A stretch of 64,000 bases of DNA from a phage. Where the stretch lies: the sequence record PZ445444.1; one strand, given 5' to 3'. Within the stretch, counting starts at the first letter, position 1; the number at the start of each line of letters is the position of its first letter. Below the pieces are notes generated by a model, which did not search any database, had not been told where the DNA came from, and saw only the letters and a program-made list of their open reading frames with translations. Positions 4,737 to 61,555 of the stretch are shown here, piece after piece. Both the position numbers and the translations under genes were made by a program.

Positions 4737-4950
4737 TTGAATGATAATCATTCTCGTTTGCAGAATAACGGGCAGGCCCGGTGATTGTCTCCCGGCCCCT
4801 ACTGCCCCGGCTTGTTATTATAGTAACACACAGGACAAAGAAAGCAAGAAGTTTTTGCATAAATTTTTAGACGATAATGATAATCGTTCTCATTTCATGC
4901 AGCGCCCATCCCCGGTGGTTGTCTCCCCCGTCACCGGTGCCTGCCGTCCT
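4737..4950. repeat. two diverged ~75-bp direct repeats, each starting with a Fur-box-like sequence and ending in a GC-rich hairpin
   Basis: aATGATAATCATTcTC near 4740 and GATAATGATAATCgTTcTC at 4873-4891 (17/19 to GATAATGATAATCATTATC), each followed by CCGGTG(A/G)TTGTCTCCC. Confidence 0.5.
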
Positions 4951-5157
4951 TTCGATAGGTATATTTTGCCACCTAGCGGGGCCGCTGTCAACACTTTTCA
5001 AAAAAAAAAAAAAATTTCTAACCTGATGCGCTGACCGCTGCAACCTGGCGGGGCCAGCCTGGCAGGGCCTAACTGACCAGGTAGGAGAGAATGAAGGCTT
5101 GCAAACCTGGTGGGCCTATGCTATAGGATAGATAACAATTGAAGAGGAGGTACAAAA

Positions 5158-55450: not shown

Positions 55451-55801
55451 TCAGTAGATGTTTTGTTTAATCTCTATTCCAAACTTTTTAAACGAGTCAG
55501 CTGCAAGCATGAATTTACGAGCCGCTGATGGGTTAGAAGTATGCACGAAAATCTTCACGTTGTCAACTACAGGGGGCTTACCAAATACAAATTTTTCCTC
55601 CAACATAGATAGGCAATCGTACCCTTCGAACACCTCTCCAAGGTCGTTGTCCATGTGCCACTCAGAAACGCGTCTGTAGAGCTTTCCCCTATCGTTAATA
55701 AAATCTATAAACTCGGAGGAATTCTTTAGCCAAATAGCGTCTGGGAGCCCATAATTTGACGGATCTCTCAAGTCATCCAGCCACACAATCAACTTCTTCA
55801 T
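55451..55801 (-). CDS. hypothetical protein
   Basis: 116-aa ORF between Sir2 and RNA ligase. Confidence 0.5.
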   Translation of the reverse strand: MKKLIVWLDDLRDPSNYGLPDAIWLKNSSEFIDFINDRGKLYRRVSEWHMDNDLGEVFEGYDCLSMLEEKFVFGKPPVVDNVKIFVHTSNPSAARKFMLAADSFKKFGIEIKQNIY

Positions 55802-56712
55802 TGCATATAGTTCTCGTTGTGGAAATAGTAATCAAGTATCTCACGGCGTTCCTGCTCCAGGAGGCAGTTCCACACATCTTCTGTGTAATTGTTACTAATG
55901 AAGTTTACCATGCCGTAAAACTCTTCGTCAACACGTTTAAAGATATCATCATCCCAAATCTTCCAAGCTTTACCCCTCATTACGGCCTTCCGTGCCAGGT
56001 AGTATGGAGACTTGATCTTCAGCTGCAGGTCATAAGGGTAGTAAGGCTTACGGATCATATACCCTTCGCCCCTTGTTTCTGCGGCTAATTCTTTTGCATA
56101 GCTGAACGGGATTTCACGCACAGTGTGAGGACGTTTTGCACCAAGGTATTTGGCAATCCCATCTAAAGCTGCTTCTGGTAGCATTATTCCAGAATCATTA
56201 TATCTGCAACCTATCAAATATGCGCCATGGTCTTCTTGAACAATATGCGGATCTGAAGGGTGACAAATTTCAAACATGAATGTCATGTTTTCATTGCCCA
56301 TAACCTTCTTGATAAGATCTAAATTACCACATTGCTCTTGGATGGTTTCCTTTGCAAGGTTACAATATGGAGAATCAAGAGACCCGGTTGTTGAGAACAA
56401 TAGGTCACCTTTATGAGATGATACCACACCAAGGAATCCGTTCTTTTTCTCTACCGCAGTCACAAGCTTATTGTCAGGCAGGTTGGTGGAGTTTTCTCCC
56501 AAGTTAAACACTTTTGTGAAGGGCCATGCCACAACATTTCCTTCATTACCTACAACAATGCCTCGGCACTCCAGTAAACGAGGGGACAAATGCCATAAAT
56601 TGTTGTAAAATACTTTTCTAGCATATTTATAGATCTTTAACCCGAGATCTGGGTAATACCTACTGGTTACAAGACCTTTGTCAACTAGGTCGTCTGCATT
56701 AAAATACTTCAT
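55798..56712 (-). CDS. RNA ligase-like nucleotidyltransferase
   Basis: about 304 aa from ATG with GAGG RBS (track start 56733 also possible); motif I-like KKNGF, motif IV EGYMIRK, motif V LKIKSP. Confidence 0.65.
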   Translation of the reverse strand: MKYFNADDLVDKGLVTSRYYPDLGLKIYKYARKVFYNNLWHLSPRLLECRGIVVGNEGNVVAWPFTKVFNLGENSTNLPDNKLVTAVEKKNGFLGVVSSHKGDLLFSTTGSLDSPYCNLAKETIQEQCGNLDLIKKVMGNENMTFMFEICHPSDPHIVQEDHGAYLIGCRYNDSGIMLPEAALDGIAKYLGAKRPHTVREIPFSYAKELAAETRGEGYMIRKPYYPYDLQLKIKSPYYLARKAVMRGKAWKIWDDDIFKRVDEEFYGMVNFISNNYTEDVWNCLLEQERREILDYYFHNENYMQ

Positions 56713-56776
56713 TATATGTTCCTCATTTATCATTTTGTCAGTCTATCCTGCCACACAAATAACCTAGTGTCAACAC

Positions 56777-56805
56777 TTGAAATTAACAAAACAGTTAGGT
56801 ATACT
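56777..56805 (+). promoter_or_regulatory. sigma70-like promoter in divergent intergenic region
   Basis: TTGAAA, 17 nt, TATACT upstream of the kinase gene. Confidence 0.45.
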
Positions 56806-56833
56806 ACCGTTGAAATTAAAACGGAGGGTCACT

Positions 56834-57244
56834 ATGTCTAAAATGCTATATATCGTGCGTGGTCTACCAGGGTCTGGCAAATCAACACTGGCAAATGCGC
56901 TATCTTTAGAGGGTCTGTATCCACATTTTGAGAACGACATGTTCTGGTATGACGATGACGGCAATTACAACTGGGATGCAAGTAAAGTAACACTCGCAGC
57001 AAAATGGTGCAAAGATAACGTAGAAGATATGATGCGTATGGGATACGACCGTATCGTGGTAAGTAATACGTTTACAAAAGAAAAACATGTGCAGGAATAT
57101 GTTGACATGGCAATCAGTCATGGGTATAGTTATACCGTGATCGTGGTTGAAAACCGCCACGGTAATAAAAGCATTCATGATGTTCCAGACAAGGTTGTGG
57201 ATCGTATGGAACGCCAGCTTAAAAACTGCATTAAACTTAAATGA
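56834..57244 (+). CDS. P-loop kinase (polynucleotide-kinase-like)
   Basis: 136 aa from ATG with GGAGGG RBS; Walker A GLPGSGKST near N-terminus. Confidence 0.65.
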   Translation: MSKMLYIVRGLPGSGKSTLANALSLEGLYPHFENDMFWYDDDGNYNWDASKVTLAAKWCKDNVEDMMRMGYDRIVVSNTFTKEKHVQEYVDMAISHGYSYTVIVVENRHGNKSIHDVPDKVVDRMERQLKNCIKLK

Positions 57245-57251
57245 GGAATGT

Positions 57252-57806
57252 ATGAAATACTTTGTAACAAGCGACACACACTTTCTCCACCAGCGGGTCA
57301 TGGAGTTTGATTCATGTCAAAAACACAGATCTCAGTATGATCACAATCTTGACAGTATGAATGCGGGAATCATCGCCGAGTGGAACTCTGTTGTGTCACC
57401 TGCAGACACTGTGTTCCACTTGGGAGATATTGCGTGCACTAATGATAAGAATATCAACAACTTACTTCCAGATATTCTAAATATGTTGAACGGACATATT
57501 ATTCTTGTTCGTGGCAACCATGACACAAGGACGACTGTCAGAATTATGAAAGAGTTCGGTCATGAGGTTGTAGATTATTACGAGCTTCGCCACAACAAGA
57601 ATTTGATCTGTATGAGCCATTACCAGTTTGCAAAGTGGAACAGAAAGCCTCACGGATCAGTCCAACTGTTCGGTCATGCTCACGGAACCACACAACAGTT
57701 GTTTGGCAGGCAGCTTGATGTCGGTTGGGATGTGTGGGGGAGACTCTTACCATTAGAAGAGGCATACCGTATTGCAATGAGTTTTGATATTGACAGCAGG
57801 GAGTAA
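57252..57806 (+). CDS. calcineurin-like metallophosphoesterase
   Basis: 184 aa from ATG with GAGGAA RBS; motifs SDTHF, GDIA, GNHD. Confidence 0.75.
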   Translation: MKYFVTSDTHFLHQRVMEFDSCQKHRSQYDHNLDSMNAGIIAEWNSVVSPADTVFHLGDIACTNDKNINNLLPDILNMLNGHIILVRGNHDTRTTVRIMKEFGHEVVDYYELRHNKNLICMSHYQFAKWNRKPHGSVQLFGHAHGTTQQLFGRQLDVGWDVWGRLLPLEEAYRIAMSFDIDSRE

Positions 57807-57853: not shown

Positions 57854-58204
57854 ATGAAAGATGGGGATAAGCTGCTATATCTTAAAGTCCCCCTTGAAAT
57901 ACTATCTATGTCAAAAGTTTTGAATGACACAACTGGGGAGGTTGTTGTTCTTGACTTGTATGACAAGATCGTATACTGCTACCTGCACAACTGGTATAAG
58001 CTTGGAGGAAATTCACGCTTCACACCAAGCACAAGGAAAATTGCAGCAGATGTTGGGATAAAGAAAACAAAAGCAGCAGCGTGCGTTAAAACTTTAGAAT
58101 GTGCAGGAGTGGTTGAAACATCCACACAAGGGAGAGGTAAAAGATGCACATTTTCCAAAGTTTTGCCACCAGAAGAAGTTATTCGGATGTCAACAACTGG
58201 TTAG
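57854..58204 (+). CDS. hypothetical protein, possible HTH DNA-binding
   Basis: 116 aa; helix-turn-helix-like segment STRKIAADVGIKKTKAAACVKTLECAGVV. Confidence 0.5.
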   Translation: MKDGDKLLYLKVPLEILSMSKVLNDTTGEVVVLDLYDKIVYCYLHNWYKLGGNSRFTPSTRKIAADVGIKKTKAAACVKTLECAGVVETSTQGRGKRCTFSKVLPPEEVIRMSTTG

Positions 58205-58278
58205 ACCAGTAAAAACTTAAATATCTGTACTATAAGGATTCGTATGTTTTATGTTCGTCATGGAACGGATACTATTAA

Positions 58279-58361
58279 CTGTCCGTGATACGGACACTAC
58301 TGTCCGTCACGCGGACACATCTGCCCGTAATACGGACACTAACTGTCCGTGATACGGACAC
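58279..58361 (+). repeat. four tandem ~21-bp repeats, each an inverted repeat TGTCCGT-nnn-ACGGACA
   Basis: CTGTCCGTGATACGGACACT / ACTGTCCGTCACGCGGACACAT / CTGCCCGTAATACGGACACT / CTGTCCGTGATACGGACAC. Confidence 0.7.
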
Positions 58362-58494
58362 ATAAAGAATATAACTAAAATAACTAAATAATAAAAAATA
58401 AAAGATCTAGTACTTATGGTACTAAGTACATATACTTAACTTATGTAGAATATACTAGATCCTAAGTACCATGTTTTAAATTTATTACTTACTA

Positions 58495-58745
58495 TGGGCA
58501 GTGTCGGCCCTTCATTGGCACTCGCCTACGAGGGGCGAGATGCCGGGCCTCCTTGGTGCACACAATAACAGAAGTTCATACATGCAGGTCTGTTAACATG
58601 TGTGGGAGCGAAGCGATAGCGCAGGCCAAAGGCCGAGCACTGATGTGGACCACCGACGAAAGCTTGCCAGCGCCGTAAGGAGTCGGTTGAGAGTCTCCCG
58701 CGCGAGCTTGGATGAAGTTTATGTGTGGAAACTGACAAGAAGGCC
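58495..58745 (+). ncRNA. GC-rich structured non-coding island (unassigned candidate RNA)
   Basis: local GC well above the window average; nested complementary stems such as GGCACTCGCC/GGCGAGATGCC; the only ORF here (minus, 70 aa) has a non-protein-like translation. Confidence 0.3.
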
Positions 58746-58864
58746 CCTAAATCGCTCCACAGCTATATAAACTATACCAGGTAATGCAATCGCACCAGTT
58801 TGATAGAAAAGCTCGTTACAAAGCGATACAGTGAGTTTTTCTATAACTTGAAGAGGAGGCAGCT

Positions 58865-59443
58865 ATGGGTTCACGCAAAGATGACCGTGAAAAGATTGCA
58901 AAACGTTATCAGAATGAAGAACAGATGGAGAAAACTTTCAAGTGGAAGCCCGGTTTCCAGCGTAATCATTCTAACGCTCGTGATCGTAAGCATCCGGATA
59001 AGTGGCTAACACCGCCAAATGATGGCATGCAGGTTGGGGATGAGAAGGAGATGTCGCCTGGAAAAGATGGCAACTACATTCGCACTAAGGACGCTGGTCC
59101 AAAGGATGACAGCTATCTTGTAGATAAGGTTCTTGATGGTATCAATGTAGATGTTGACACTGCACGAAACCTTTTTCTTGGGTGGTATCGCACAGGTTTT
59201 TTCGACATCAAGGCTATTCGTCGTGTTTGTGATATTAAAAAGTCTGCCTATGATGATGACTCTCTACATCGCACTCTGAGACAATACTCAGAGAGATACG
59301 GTCATCCAGTTATCACTCTTGACGATATTAACGAAGTGATGTATCATGCAGAGGTTGTTGCAGGTAGATTCGGTGATGCATATCTCGGTATTCTTTCTGC
59401 AAAAGATGAGGTAATGTTAAATAAAGTTTACTATGAACGCTGA
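58865..59443 (+). CDS. hypothetical protein
   Basis: 192-aa ORF, GAGGAGG RBS. Confidence 0.6.
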   Translation: MGSRKDDREKIAKRYQNEEQMEKTFKWKPGFQRNHSNARDRKHPDKWLTPPNDGMQVGDEKEMSPGKDGNYIRTKDAGPKDDSYLVDKVLDGINVDVDTARNLFLGWYRTGFFDIKAIRRVCDIKKSAYDDDSLHRTLRQYSERYGHPVITLDDINEVMYHAEVVAGRFGDAYLGILSAKDEVMLNKVYYER

Positions 59444-59453
59444 GGAGCGCTTA

Positions 59454-59642
59454 ATGAACAACCCGGTAGCAAAGAACTGTAATAAGTTCAACAAGTCTGC
59501 AATTCACACTGACAGGAAAAAGAGCTGGTCTCCTGACATTGACGAGGAGCTTGAGAGTTACTTTGAAGACCTGGTCACTAATGCAGATGAGGTTGCGATT
59601 AAAGAATACGCAGACAGGAAGGATAAGGCCGGAATCTGTTGA
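59454..59642 (+). CDS. hypothetical protein
   Basis: 62 aa from ATG with GAGGAG RBS. Confidence 0.45.
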   Translation: MNNPVAKNCNKFNKSAIHTDRKKSWSPDIDEELESYFEDLVTNADEVAIKEYADRKDKAGIC

Positions 59643-59718
59643 CAAAAATAGTGTTACCTGATAAGATCTGCAATATGATGTGATGCAATTTTAACTTACG
59701 AGGTCTACAGGTAATGCC

Positions 59719-59961
59719 ATGTTTAAGGTCAAGCTCGTTTTTCGTTCCATGAATGAGGATTATTTAGAAGATGAAGGTGAATTTCGTGCACTGGATGATG
59801 CAATAGATTTTGCCAACGACTTAGCTTGTATGAATACAGGTTATGGGCTATGTTGTTGGGATGGTGGTGTTCAGATCGGTGATAGCAAGATCTTCTACTT
59901 CTACCCTGAGCCTGATAACAAACAAATTAAGTATGTTTTATTTATTTGTGCTTTACAATGA
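59719..59961 (+). CDS. hypothetical protein
   Basis: 80-aa ORF. Confidence 0.45.
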   Translation: MFKVKLVFRSMNEDYLEDEGEFRALDDAIDFANDLACMNTGYGLCCWDGGVQIGDSKIFYFYPEPDNKQIKYVLFICALQ

Positions 59962-60019
59962 GGTTGTTTTCGTGTATCATGATGAATATCCAATTTAAAG
60001 ATGAATTTGATGGCTTTAT

Positions 60020-60250
60020 CTCTGGATGCTTTGAAACAGGGTTCGGAGAAGACTGAGTTCCCCTTAGAGGGCTTGATAGTGCACCACACTTAAAATGGTA
60101 GGGGCAGCCAGCACATGACGATGTGACCCCAGCCAACCTGTAACAAGGTCGAGCCGAAGCGCGGGTAATAGGCCTCTGGTAACCCACTTGTTGGGTCTTG
60201 CTGGTCCAGGACGCTGGACAAGTCGCAGGGAACACCACCCTGCGGCGAAC
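60020..60250 (+). ncRNA. GC-rich structured non-coding island (unassigned candidate RNA)
   Basis: GC-rich non-coding stretch upstream of promoter 60251-60279; overlapping minus ORF translation is low-complexity. Confidence 0.3.
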
Positions 60251-60279
60251 TTGACAATCAGTATTTGCTATGATAAAAT
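60251..60279 (+). promoter_or_regulatory. sigma70-like promoter
   Basis: TTGACA, 17 nt, TAAAAT upstream of ORF 60308. Confidence 0.5.
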
Positions 60280-60307
60280 CCACCTATCACGTGATAATGG
60301 AGGAAAC

Positions 60308-60646
60308 ATGGCGGATACAACTAAAAAGCGTCGCCGTAGAGGCAGACCTCTGAAAGAGGAGTCCAACGCCATTCAGCTAGAGAAGAACATCCTTGATATG
60401 AAGGAATCTTTTATAGCGATGGTTCCAGAAGCTCACAAAGTTTTAAGAGAGCTGATGTTGGACCCGAAAACCAAACAAAATATTCGTCAAAGCATTGCAG
60501 AGTATGTTCTTGATAAGGCAGACCGAATGCAGGAAGAATATGATGAGATGTTTGGTGAAGAGGAAGAGGTGGTAGTAGAAGAGGCTGAAAAACCAGCACC
60601 TTTTATGCCATTCACCACAGAAATACAGCCTGTTGGCAATAGTTAA
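60308..60646 (+). CDS. hypothetical protein with basic N-terminus and acidic C-terminus
   Basis: 112 aa from ATG with GGAGG RBS; N-terminal KKRRRRGRPLK. Confidence 0.55.
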   Translation: MADTTKKRRRRGRPLKEESNAIQLEKNILDMKESFIAMVPEAHKVLRELMLDPKTKQNIRQSIAEYVLDKADRMQEEYDEMFGEEEEVVVEEAEKPAPFMPFTTEIQPVGNS

Positions 60647-60742
60647 AATATTTTCTTGACAAACTTTGCTTAACAGTGTAATATTGTAAACATGGTCTCC
60701 CACCTTTTCTGGCGGCTAAGGTGTAAAAGAAAGCCACCCAGT

Positions 60743-60817
60743 GCCCTGTTAGCTTAGTGGATAAAGCAGCGGCCTTCTAAGCCGTTGACACTGGTTCGAG
60801 TCCAGTACGGGGTGCCA
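60743..60817 (+). tRNA. tRNA-Arg (anticodon TCT)
   Basis: hand-folded cloverleaf: 7-bp acceptor GCCCTGT/ACGGGGT, D stem GCTT/AAGC, anticodon loop CTTCTAA, T loop TTCGAGT, encoded CCA. Confidence 0.75.
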
Positions 60818-60821
60818 AATT

Positions 60822-60908
60822 GGGGAGTTATCCCGTAGAGGTAGCGGTGTAGACTGTAAATCTATTGTCATTGCGACTCGGGTGGTTCGACTCCACCACT
60901 CCCCACCA
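60822..60908 (+). tRNA. tRNA-Tyr (anticodon GTA), long variable arm
   Basis: acceptor GGGGAGT/ACTCCCC, anticodon stem-loop GTAGA-CTGTAAA-TCTAT, T arm GGTGG-TTCGACT-CCACC, CCA. Confidence 0.7.
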
Positions 60909-61022
60909 AATTTATATTTTTAGATGCATAAATAATACAGATAATGGCATTGATATTTATCGTCGTTTATACTAGTCACTAACTGCTCGAAAATCAGTGT
61001 CATTATCAGTATAATTTATAAA

Positions 61023-61113
61023 GGAGGGTAGGGAGCAATGGTGCTCAAGCGGTCTTGAAAACCGTCCCGTTGAGGATGACTCGATGATGGTTCGATTCCA
61101 TTACTCTCCGCCA
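61023..61113 (+). tRNA. tRNA-Ser (anticodon TGA), type II
   Basis: acceptor GGAGGGT/ACTCTCC, anticodon loop CTTGAAA, long variable arm, T loop TTCGATT, CCA. Confidence 0.6.
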
Positions 61114-61211
61114 CATTGTTGACCTTGTAATTAAGCGAAAGCCGGAAGCAGAACCGGATTATCAAATGTTACAGTCGTCATCGCCGACTAGCAACATGGT
61201 CAACATACTGA

Positions 61212-61310
61212 GCTAGGTAAGCCCTTTGGCAAGGGCGAGGATTTTTAATCCTGAAAATAGACGAGGTAGTCGTTGAATACATAGGTGGTTCGATTCCATC
61301 ACCTAGCACC
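61212..61310 (+). tRNA. tRNA-like gene, atypical (99 nt; anticodon loop TTTTTAA suggests TTT/Lys; ~28-nt variable region)
   Basis: acceptor GCTAGGT/ACCTAGC, D arm GCCC-TTTGGCAA-GGGC, 4-bp anticodon stem AGGA/TCCT, T arm GGTGG-TTCGATT-CCATC; CCA not fully encoded. Confidence 0.4.
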
Positions 61311-61315
61311 TTTTT

Positions 61316-61391
61316 GCTGATGTAGCACAATCGGTAGTGCAATTGATTTGTAATCAATAGGTTGTAGGTTCAAGTCCTGCCATCAGCACCA
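61316..61391 (+). tRNA. tRNA-Thr (anticodon TGT)
   Basis: acceptor GCTGATG/CATCAGC, D stem GCAC/GTGC, anticodon arm ATTGA-TTTGTAA-TCAAT, T loop TTCAAGT, CCA. Confidence 0.8.
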
Positions 61392-61392
61392 A

Positions 61393-61467
61393 GGCCCTGT
61401 AGCTGGAAGGTTCAAGCAAGCGACTCATAATCGCCAGACGGTGGTTCAATTCCACCCAGGGCCACCA
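61393..61467 (+). tRNA. tRNA-Met (anticodon CAT; initiator, elongator or Ile-lysidine type not resolved)
   Basis: acceptor GGCCCTG/CAGGGCC, anticodon loop CTCATAA, T arm GGTGG-TTCAATT-CCACC, CCA. Confidence 0.75.
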
Positions 61468-61478
61468 AATAATAAATA

Positions 61479-61555
61479 CTCCGCGTAGCTCAGCTTGGTA
61501 GAGCGCCTGATTTGGGATCAGGAGGTCGAGTGTTCGAATCACTCCGTGGAGACCA
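61479..61555 (+). tRNA. tRNA-Pro (anticodon TGG)
   Basis: acceptor CTCCGCG/CGTGGAG, D arm TAGCTCAGCTTGGTAGAGC, anticodon arm CCTGA-TTTGGGA-TCAGG, T arm GAGTG-TTCGAAT-CACTC, CCA. Confidence 0.8.

Follow-up and report, generated by a model that had tools for sequence, protein, structure and literature searches.

The 64,000-nt stretch of phage DNA analysed here (sequence record PZ445444.1, hereafter the window) belongs, judged by sequence, to an rV5-like coliphage of the genus Vequintavirus: the 2.5 kb around the elements of interest are 98-99.8% identical to those of more than 110 rV5-like phages of this genus. A sequence-only reading had pointed out two GC-rich, structured non-coding islands in this region (58495-58745 and 60020-60250), which it placed beside a tRNA cluster and likened to the stable small RNAs of T4. 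On the + strand, the order is P-loop kinase, metallophosphoesterase, 116-aa winged-helix protein, island 1, ORF192, ORF69, ORF80 (ORF, open reading frame), island 2, a 112-aa gene and seven tRNA genes. The islands and their immediate surroundings are delimited as follows:

58503-58864, + strand: island 1, a conserved non-coding structured block reaching the ORF192 start codon (conservation, codon-position test)
59952-59980, + strand: promoter-like site ahead of island 2, TTTACA-17-TATCAT (10 of 12 consensus positions; a consensus match only)
59987-60250, + strand: island 2, putative small RNA unit (conservation; the part conserved as far as the distant relative L026 is 60063-60250)
60251-60279, + strand: strong promoter of the conserved 112-aa gene (60308-60646), TTGACA-17-TAAAAT plus an upstream TG (11 of 12 consensus positions)
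60743-61555, + strand: cluster of seven tRNA genes, namely Arg, Tyr, Ser, an odd long tRNA-like gene, Thr, Met and Pro (ARAGORN, Rfam)

Both islands are indeed much richer in GC than the DNA around them. Region 58495-58745 has a GC content of 0.570 and region 60020-60250 one of 0.563, compared to a mean of 0.424 for the window (standard deviation of 200-nt windows, 0.039). Their best 200-nt windows, 58505-58704 (0.595) and 60051-60250 (0.575), are the top two GC peaks of the 64 kb, with less than 0.1% of windows reaching them. The strong promoter predicted right after island 2 is also there as a consensus match. Proximity to the tRNA cluster holds for island 2, which lies 0.5 kb upstream of it, but only loosely for island 1, which is 2 kb away with three ORFs in between.

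Protein-coding islands could be ruled out by codon-position counts in island 1 and by frame-breaking indels in relatives for both islands, in line with the non-coding status assigned to them before. Within an ORF that some records annotate in island 1 (58600-58770), ten rV5-like genomes differ by 12, 19 and 14 substitutions at codon positions 1, 2 and 3; in L079, a diverged Vequintavirus, a +1 indel breaks the long minus-strand ORF over the same island. Island 2 of L026 carries two 1-nt indels and a 14-nt deletion. The complementary stems seen by eye are present as well, since comparative alignments reveal helices kept by compensatory changes in both islands; conservation with such changes in related phages was one of the checks that the sequence-only reading had proposed. 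The comparison of sequences shows both islands to be genuine conserved non-coding elements in which base pairing on the + strand is maintained, and their function would depend on folding of that strand, most likely as RNA. What did not survive is their treatment as a pair. They share no similarity, and the covariance model of the island 2 junction introduced below finds a single copy in the window, so that we discarded the idea of paralogues and consider them two different elements.

It could be argued that the islands are mere evolutionary debris, i.e. remnants of decayed genes or of GC-richer DNA acquired by horizontal transfer, which serve no function themselves. Their GC content is far above the phage background, and short hypothetical ORFs are annotated here in some database records. 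However, the sequence is strongly conserved where the flanks diverge, the same 42-nt core recurs in unrelated phage families, and no source sequence is found in E. coli chromosomes or other bacterial genomes. Compensatory substitutions in several helices already contradict this explanation, which we regard as highly improbable. Host-derived or host-mimicking islands were rejected too: island 2 is unmatched in 5,426 E. coli genomes, and island 1 matches satellite-like plasmids only.

No known RNA family can be assigned to either island, as the sequence-only reading had found by eye. In a scan with Rfam 15, the families of which include riboswitches, ribozymes, transfer-messenger RNA (tmRNA), RNase P, 6S, Y RNA, GOLLD/ROOL and group I introns, tRNAs alone pass the gathering threshold in the window; at E<=10, matches over 58200-60750 are at chance level, and none covers the junction of island 2 or the core of island 1. 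Scans of the T4 copy of the junction and of its surroundings in L007 gave the same picture. Around the tRNA clusters of Mydovirus, Seunavirus, Henunavirus and Certrevirus, we found no homologue of either island beyond one 15-nt word. Sequence-string and keyword searches of the literature, with a 2023 catalogue of more than 10,000 viral candidate RNAs (PMC10690425) lying outside this comparison, retrieved no published description of either element. We therefore file both islands as new families within the phage-encoded structured non-coding elements.

The simplest reading of island 2 is a small untranslated transcript of approximately 190-260 nt, which would start from its own promoter upstream of the tRNA region. 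L026 has another, stronger promoter-like site (TTGACA-17-TATACT) immediately before the conserved part. A block of 33 nt, GGGCTTGATAGTGCACCACACT.AAAATGGTAGG (60073-60105), is identical in L026 but for one insertion, the flanking proteins being 66-73% identical. The terminator scan detected no U-tract terminator after island 2, which ends in a hairpin. Just upstream, at 59980-60056, there is a micro-ORF ending in or containing ...KDEFDGF; it codes for 25 aa in the window and for 8 aa in L026 (~450-480), is 100% identical over 21 nt between the two, and overlaps the predicted -10 box in the window. The structural elements of island 2 are:

60101-60130, + strand: hairpin P1, directly 5' of the junction (a different but self-complementary hairpin in L026)
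60132-60173, + strand: three-way-junction core (covariance model R1, 31-sequence alignment)
60132-60135 with 60169 and 60171-60173, + strand: P2, the closing helix (alignment)
60136-60149, + strand: P3, hairpin with hexaloop GURRNA (alignment)
60153-60162, + strand: P4, mini-hairpin (alignment)
60182-60196, 60204-60219 and 60224-60244, + strand: three 3' hairpins (RNAalifold, five relatives)

For the three-way junction, 96.5% of the cells are paired among 31 distinct sequences and 6 of the 11 pairs show compensatory changes, whereas none of 500 shuffles reaches these values on any of the five measures used; sliding the partner strands against each other drops pairing to 24-40%. The three inner pairs of P2 are always paired, with three or four pair types each, and its U.G and G.U pairs fit the + strand only. 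P3 has the form ACCU-GURRNA-AGGU, with its U-A pair replaced by A-U in L036, and P4 the form GCC-NNN-GnGC, with the middle C-G pair turned into G-C in L079. Variation is absent or almost absent from the joining strands CGA and GG(G)UAAU. Altogether, some 25 nucleotides of the loops and the junction hardly vary between unrelated virulent phages. Model R1, built from the 31-sequence alignment, detects its one copy in the window with 59.9 bits (E 9e-16). Outside the core, the place of P1 is taken by a hairpin also in T4, L004-type contigs, L015 and other lineages, and the middle 3' hairpin (60204-60219) changes in a compensatory manner in L079.

Several other structural interpretations were dropped. 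A long-range GGGCUUG/CGAGCC pairing that RNAalifold proposed for island 2 does not hold in L079 and JEP1 and is missing from other lineages; the double change of L079 is better explained by P4. The P3 loop (CUGUAA or CUGUGA) might be taken for an anticodon-arm mimic (Tyr/His GUN); its U-A closing pair covaries to A-U in L036, which leaves a loop of 6 nt and thus no anticodon loop. The spacing does not fit a T-loop reading of GGUCGAGCC.

The junction is far more widespread than the island around it. A sensitive search of phage genomes retrieved 118 rV5-like records, and also about 400 T4-like genomes and the Pseudomonas phage PsgM04F, which match over only 35-48 nt (60125-60172); two pattern scans of IMG/VR added further lineages. 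The copies are almost identical in sequence, and each genome has one. In PsgM04F, the junction is located inside the tRNA array, between tRNA-Thr and tRNA-Gly, and in the uncultivated contigs L004, L006, L007 and L010 it precedes tRNA genes of the same strand by 260-375 nt. By eye, a TTGACA-type promoter can be recognised in the latter four, and the roughly 0.6-0.9 kb of non-coding sequence after it holds the junction. In T4, it occupies the unannotated spacer between denV and vs.8, and in T4-like lineages it always stands directly ahead of a short upstream ORF (uORF) and a vs.8 homologue, whatever the upstream gene. The block GYGCCAHGGAAYGGCCC downstream of the junction is kept in different reading frames in these phages and thus acts at the RNA level too. 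When 185,579 species genomes of bacteria and archaea were scanned with an exact pattern, 23 matches emerged, all of which lack the P3 hairpin and lie in GC-rich sequence; we therefore regard them as chance matches, and the junction appears to be restricted to phages. Neither the satellite plasmid discussed below nor the tRNA/rnaC/rnaD locus of T4 contains a copy according to model R1.

Some features of these neighbourhoods deserve mention in their own right. In the T4-like phages (L001 2550-2601; equivalents in L003-L045), the uORF (MDNSCATEWPKLIEKK in T4) contains the frame-independent RNA block and overlaps the vs.8 start codon (ATGA); in the record of T4 strain 147, vs.8 is left unannotated. 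Long hairpin "cassettes" with conserved, covarying basal stems (CACAACAGGTAAGAGCA...TGCTCTTTCCGTTGTG) and interchangeable inserts of 60-80 nt are found near the junction in L004, L006, L007, L010, L019 and L002, the inserts recurring at different positions in different contigs. The boxA-like UGCUCUUU or UGCUCUUA in L004-type cassettes is base-paired and not conserved in all copies, and was dismissed as coincidence. A tag-like frame, ANEE(M/V)YLAVA*, occurs in the leaders of L004 (oriented 6155), L006 (4975) and L007 (1812-1844); relaxed ARAGORN settings call a permuted tmRNA in L007, and Rfam tmRNA matches are weak. Assigning the junction to a tmRNA was nevertheless rejected, as this frame is separable from it and is missing in L010; in the window, ARAGORN finds no tmRNA. 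We also rejected the junction as an RNA partner of the Vs.8 protein, homologues of which were found only in T4-like genomes of about 160-175 kb and neither in the window nor at the other loci bearing the motif.

We propose that the 42-nt junction, together with the hairpin that precedes it, would be the functional heart of the island 2 transcript, the junction acting as a docking module. Near-invariance of the loop nucleotides across unrelated phages suggests a single conserved partner, and we read the junction as a docking site because of its promoter-proximal and tRNA-leader positions and its invariant unpaired nucleotides. As to the partner, our preferred guess would be a component of the host transcription or RNA-processing machinery or, more broadly, a conserved host or phage macromolecule. 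The junction may act in cis on early transcripts or on long ones that are not translated, tRNA arrays and the T4 vs.8 leader being examples, by protecting them from premature termination or by directing their processing. The main alternative to such a cis-acting docking site is a stable RNA that acts in trans as a decoy or sponge.

A compact core with about 25 near-invariant unpaired nucleotides around short helices also recalls a riboswitch aptamer or a small self-cleaving ribozyme, which here would have to be of an undescribed class. The position of the junction in the T4-like phages, 10-60 nt before a start codon and followed by a second conserved RNA block kept in different frames, would suit such an element, and processing sites would be useful in polycistronic and tRNA-containing transcripts. 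On the other hand, no riboswitch or ribozyme model of Rfam matches the junction, its T4 copy or the L007 context. An expression platform, i.e. a terminator or a sequestered ribosome-binding site, was not found, and in the rV5-like phages the unit has no regulated ORF downstream, only another promoter. We consider a riboswitch or ribozyme unlikely.

Among known systems, processive antitermination RNAs are our preferred working analogy for the junction. HK022 put and the boxA leaders of rRNA operons are promoter-proximal structured RNAs ahead of long or untranslated units, with a sequence constrained by the host transcription machinery. The analogy has its limits, as put consists of two stem-loops, whereas the junction combines a hairpin with a three-way junction, and further promoters follow the element in the rV5-like phages. 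GOLLD and ROOL are phage-borne, highly structured RNAs of several hundred nt and unknown function that are encoded beside tRNA genes; their Rfam models match nothing here, and the conserved unit of island 2 amounts to only about 42-75 nt.

The sequence-only reading had likened the islands to stable small RNAs of T4, which we compared in the form of the T4 species 1 and 2 RNAs (rnaC and rnaD). These RNAs are phage-encoded, untranslated and structured, and lie beside tRNA genes or are co-transcribed with them; to our knowledge, no function has been assigned to them since their discovery. The analogy is reasonable for island 2, which is likewise an untranslated structured phage element near tRNA genes and the core of which occurs in or before tRNA arrays in four independent phage lineages. 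It does not extend to homology: blastn-short comparisons of the islands with rnaC and rnaD yield only words of 7-8 nt with E>1. The 3' end of rnaC is formed by a tRNA-like T-arm and acceptor 3' strand, that of rnaD by ...CACCA; neither island terminates in this way, and a T-loop pattern search within them recovers only the junction's own GGTCGAGCC. An RNA of the rnaC/rnaD kind would be expected within the tRNA transcription unit, from which it would be excised along with the tRNAs. However, two promoters and an ORF lie between island 2 and the tRNAs, and three ORFs separate island 1 from them; moreover, the T4 copy of the junction in the denV-vs.8 spacer is away from rnaC and rnaD. Sequences resembling rnaD do exist in arrays that hold the junction, in PsgM04F (blastn, E 0.002) and, by eye, in L006 and L007. 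They have the form GAAAC.GGGTCGCT.CC.GTAAGTCGTC...GGCGCACC, are situated at L002 2182-2295 and just before the tRNAs of L006 and L007, and are without a counterpart in the window.

A non-coding RNA has a precedent in this phage group. The rV5-like Certrevirus phiTE encodes pseudo-ToxI, an anti-defence RNA acting by mimicry, in which a tandem 36-nt repeat imitates a known antitoxin (PMC3475682). The islands differ in that they lack such repetition and show no resemblance to host RNAs or to E. coli chromosomal sequence.

Island 1 was found in 118 phage records. In L079, the sequence upstream of it is unalignable; strong conservation begins abruptly at GTCGGCCC (58503) and runs to the ORF192 start codon. 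The consensus fold computed by RNAalifold is more stable on the + strand (-100.3 kcal/mol) than on the - strand (-89.6 kcal/mol). Its parts are:

58506-58549, + strand: hairpin H1, GGCCC..GGCAcUCGCC-loop-GGCGAgaUGCC..GGGCC (alignment with the satellite plasmid L074)
58559-58604, + strand: variable central hairpin H2 (18-21 nt shorter in rV5 and Murica, other hairpins in satellites, G.U re-pairing in L079)
58640-58707, + strand: core block common to satellite-like plasmids (91% mean column identity, nine phages and five satellites)
58803-58844, + strand: near-invariant hairpin of the leader, directly ahead of the ORF192 ribosome-binding site (inverted repeat I1, 12 nt, 92% complementary)

Support for pairing comes mainly from plasmids described below, which carry the core. 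In L074, H1 reads GUCAcUCUCC/GGAGAgaUGAC and thus differs by two compensatory pairs according to the alignment, and two smaller hairpins of island 1 likewise differ compensatorily in this plasmid. The core helix 58652-58657/58682-58687 is paired in 100% of cases, with three compensatory pairs between phage and satellite and one G.U in L079, a result reached by none of 500 shuffles. It encloses a C(GNRA)G hairpin (58673-58680) with the tetraloop GUAA or GGAA. The leader hairpin is almost identical in L079, although the ORF192 protein is only 82% identical.

To the left of island 1, there is a region with the following features:

57854-58204, + strand: winged-helix replication-initiator gene, 116 aa (PHROG 12838 "replication initiation protein", E 5e-80; Pfam HTH_36 and DUF6945 just under their cut-offs)
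58276-58361, no strand assigned: four palindromic 21-22-bp iteron- or operator-like repeats, TAACTGTCCGTGATACGGACAC (repeat family D1, spacing 21/21/22 bp)
58362-58502, no strand assigned: AT-rich stretch with inverted-repeat sequence seen by eye (window 58300-58499, GC 0.325; no good sigma-70 promoter)

The initiator gene is called a "transcriptional regulator" in most records. The inverted repeat is reflected by a weak chance match to the hairpin-type Rfam family mir-154. The cumulative GC skew of the window has its minimum at about 56 kb, i.e. approximately 2 kb left of the AT-rich stretch. An initiator gene, spaced repeats and an AT-rich region, together with the turn of the skew, make up the layout of a lambda-type origin, and 57854-58502 is probably the origin from which the phage replicates. 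The initiator of L079 shows no more than 28% identity, and the repeats downstream of it are different, so both have changed together, while island 1 is kept. By its position, island 1 would belong with this putative origin rather than with the tRNA cluster.

Among complete E. coli genomes, island 1 has no chromosomal match; its homologues reside on small circular plasmids (13.2-13.7 kb) and, in three copies, on a plasmid of 39.6 kb, the record of which is an exact trimer. These satellite-like plasmids (L074-L076, L087-L089) comprise NZ_CP020521.1, NZ_CP043822.1, NZ_CP178698.1, NZ_CP035869.1 and CP148565.1. Two further contigs of this type (L092 and L094) came from a metagenome scan, and the family ranges from 13.2 to 15.5 kb. 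The metagenome contig L097 is a fragment of an rV5-like phage; the IMG/VR scan for island 1 gave one unrelated GC-rich contig (L077). The plasmids encode a major head protein, a neck/tail-completion protein, a tail-fibre/baseplate protein, a tape measure protein and a weak O-like initiator, and have seven 19-bp iterons at 23-bp spacing. The most extensive matches of the tape measure protein are to those of rV5-like phages, at about 25% identity. At the nucleotide level, island 1 is all that they share with phage genomes, its core being about 90% identical. They contain no ORF large enough for a terminase or portal protein and thus look like an undescribed family of plasmid-borne phage satellites, possibly with rV5-like helpers.

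We suggest that island 1 is a multi-hairpin element directly after the lambda-type origin layout, continuing into the ORF192 leader, and that it would serve in cis as a signal for machinery of the phage or host on which the satellites depend as well. Candidate roles are origin-proximal priming or a primer RNA, a packaging signal, or a regulatory signal. An RNA leader, a single-strand priming site and a pac site would each account for some of the observations. The covariation of its hairpins, its G.U pairs and its unbroken passage into the ORF192 leader tilt us towards a function as a single strand, while the lack of a promoter and the arrangement in the satellites keep a function as DNA alive.

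In the latter case, island 1 would be a single-strand initiation (priming) signal or another structured site associated with the origin. The AT-rich region would be unwound and the + strand, as lagging-strand template of a rightward fork, would fold into hairpins to which a primase or primosome is drawn, in the manner of G4-type sites next to plasmid origins; sharing this signal would allow the satellite to be primed by the same enzyme. Conserved clusters of hairpins on one strand next to iteron-type origins are typical of such signals, and GAA- and GNRA-type loops are stable in DNA too. Island 1 follows directly on initiator, iterons and AT-rich DNA in the phage and lies a few hundred bp past the iterons in the satellite, no promoter precedes it in either, the satellite copy is located upstream of the operon promoter, and the GC skew switches nearby. 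Judged by its placement, island 1 resembles G4-type sites and phiX-type primosome assembly sites as a one-strand hairpin cluster beside an iteron-type origin; it is larger than these sites and contiguous with an mRNA leader. Conservation that continues unbroken to the ORF192 ribosome-binding site, however, is what one expects of a 5' leader, C(GNRA)G loops and G.U pairs are features seen more typically in RNA, and the satellite, with an initiator and iterons of its own, has no need to borrow replication signals. We consider a role of island 1 as DNA possible, though doubtful.

The satellites also raise the question whether island 1 holds the packaging (pac) site of rV5-like phages, which helper-packaged satellites would copy. 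The plasmids have capsid, neck, tail-fibre and tape-measure genes but lack a large ORF that could encode a terminase or portal, one of the records is an exact 39.6-kb trimer, and island 1 is the only segment that they share with rV5-like phages at the nucleotide level. Against this, pac sites are read as duplex DNA, which needs no hairpin covariation and does not tolerate G.U pairs. They are usually found in or near the small-terminase gene, and no terminase was noted among the ORFs examined beside island 1. The helper relationship is itself an assumption. We rate a pac site in island 1 as quite unlikely.

Further observations concern other parts of the window. Left of the origin region, 55798-57806 encodes a set of the RNA-repair type, consisting of an Rnl1-family RNA ligase on the minus strand, the P-loop kinase (AAA_33, polynucleotide-kinase-like) and the metallophosphoesterase. 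The 112-aa gene behind island 2 has homologues inside the tRNA cluster in other genera of the Vequintavirinae. Within the cluster, the odd tRNA-like gene (61212-61310) contains a long insertion and is reported by ARAGORN as "tRNA-???" with a 4-base anticodon and by the Rfam tRNA model with 35.5 bits; conserved counterparts that lack a tRNA annotation occur in Klebsiella phage KB57 (L046, ~2760-2870) and Salmonella phage PVP-SE1 (L047, ~2170-2290). The third-highest GC peak of the window (0.565) is at 4740-5110, within about 1 kb devoid of convincing ORFs. Two Fur-box-like sequences, GATAATGATAATCGTTCTC and GATAATCATTCTC, are each followed there by the GC-rich repeat CCGGTGRTTGTCTCCC, and a long A run extends over ~5003-5017; this could be another structured or regulatory non-coding region.

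Taken together, we interpret island 2 as an untranslated RNA with a docking junction and island 1 as an origin-proximal cis-acting signal shared with satellites. Transcription, the partner and every functional step of both islands are inferred from sequence. A number of points weigh against this interpretation. Folding of the single sequences beats shuffles only modestly (z = -2.1 and -1.3 for the two islands), i.e. the energies are unremarkable, and hence the case for the stems rests on the comparison with relatives. For island 1, this comparison offers few independent events, since most compensatory changes reflect one split between phage and satellite. The promoter scan found no acceptable sigma-70 promoter ahead of island 1, which weakens the view of an mRNA leader or small RNA gene and makes a role of single-stranded DNA possible, and in the satellites the element is situated between the iterons (a few hundred bp after them) and the operon promoter, outside the operon leader. 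For island 2, two strong promoters intervene before the tRNAs, so that a cis role in tRNA transcription is not required in the rV5-like phages; around the tRNA clusters of the further Vequintavirinae genera that were examined, model R1 detects no copy, and the mRNA-leader context of the junction in T4 and its tRNA contexts may not share one mechanism. On balance, we give the combined explanation an even chance.

A bolder proposal would see in the junction a phage RNA effector of a new class, which even T4 would carry and which would have spread horizontally among virulent phages owing to its binding of a single conserved target in bacteria, and in island 1 a cis-acting handle for undescribed plasmid-borne satellites of ~13 kb that exploit rV5-like phages. 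The target of such an effector could be RNA polymerase or a termination factor, with antitermination of untranslated tRNA and early transcripts as the outcome, or an immune nuclease or signalling molecule against which the RNA would act as a decoy or sponge. This proposal is speculative, and we hold it to be rather unlikely as a whole.

T4 and its relatives are among the best-studied viruses, and yet a covariation-supported motif that they have in common with rV5-like phages, a Pseudomonas phage and uncultivated phages has no Rfam family. The identity of its partner could reveal how large virulent phages secure the expression of tRNA arrays and early genes, or how they counter host defence. 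Through island 1, in turn, rV5-like phages, of which phage therapy collections make wide use, are linked by concrete sequence to small plasmid-like elements with genes for parts of capsid and tail; this link makes the helper-satellite relationship and the origin or packaging signals of these phages directly testable.

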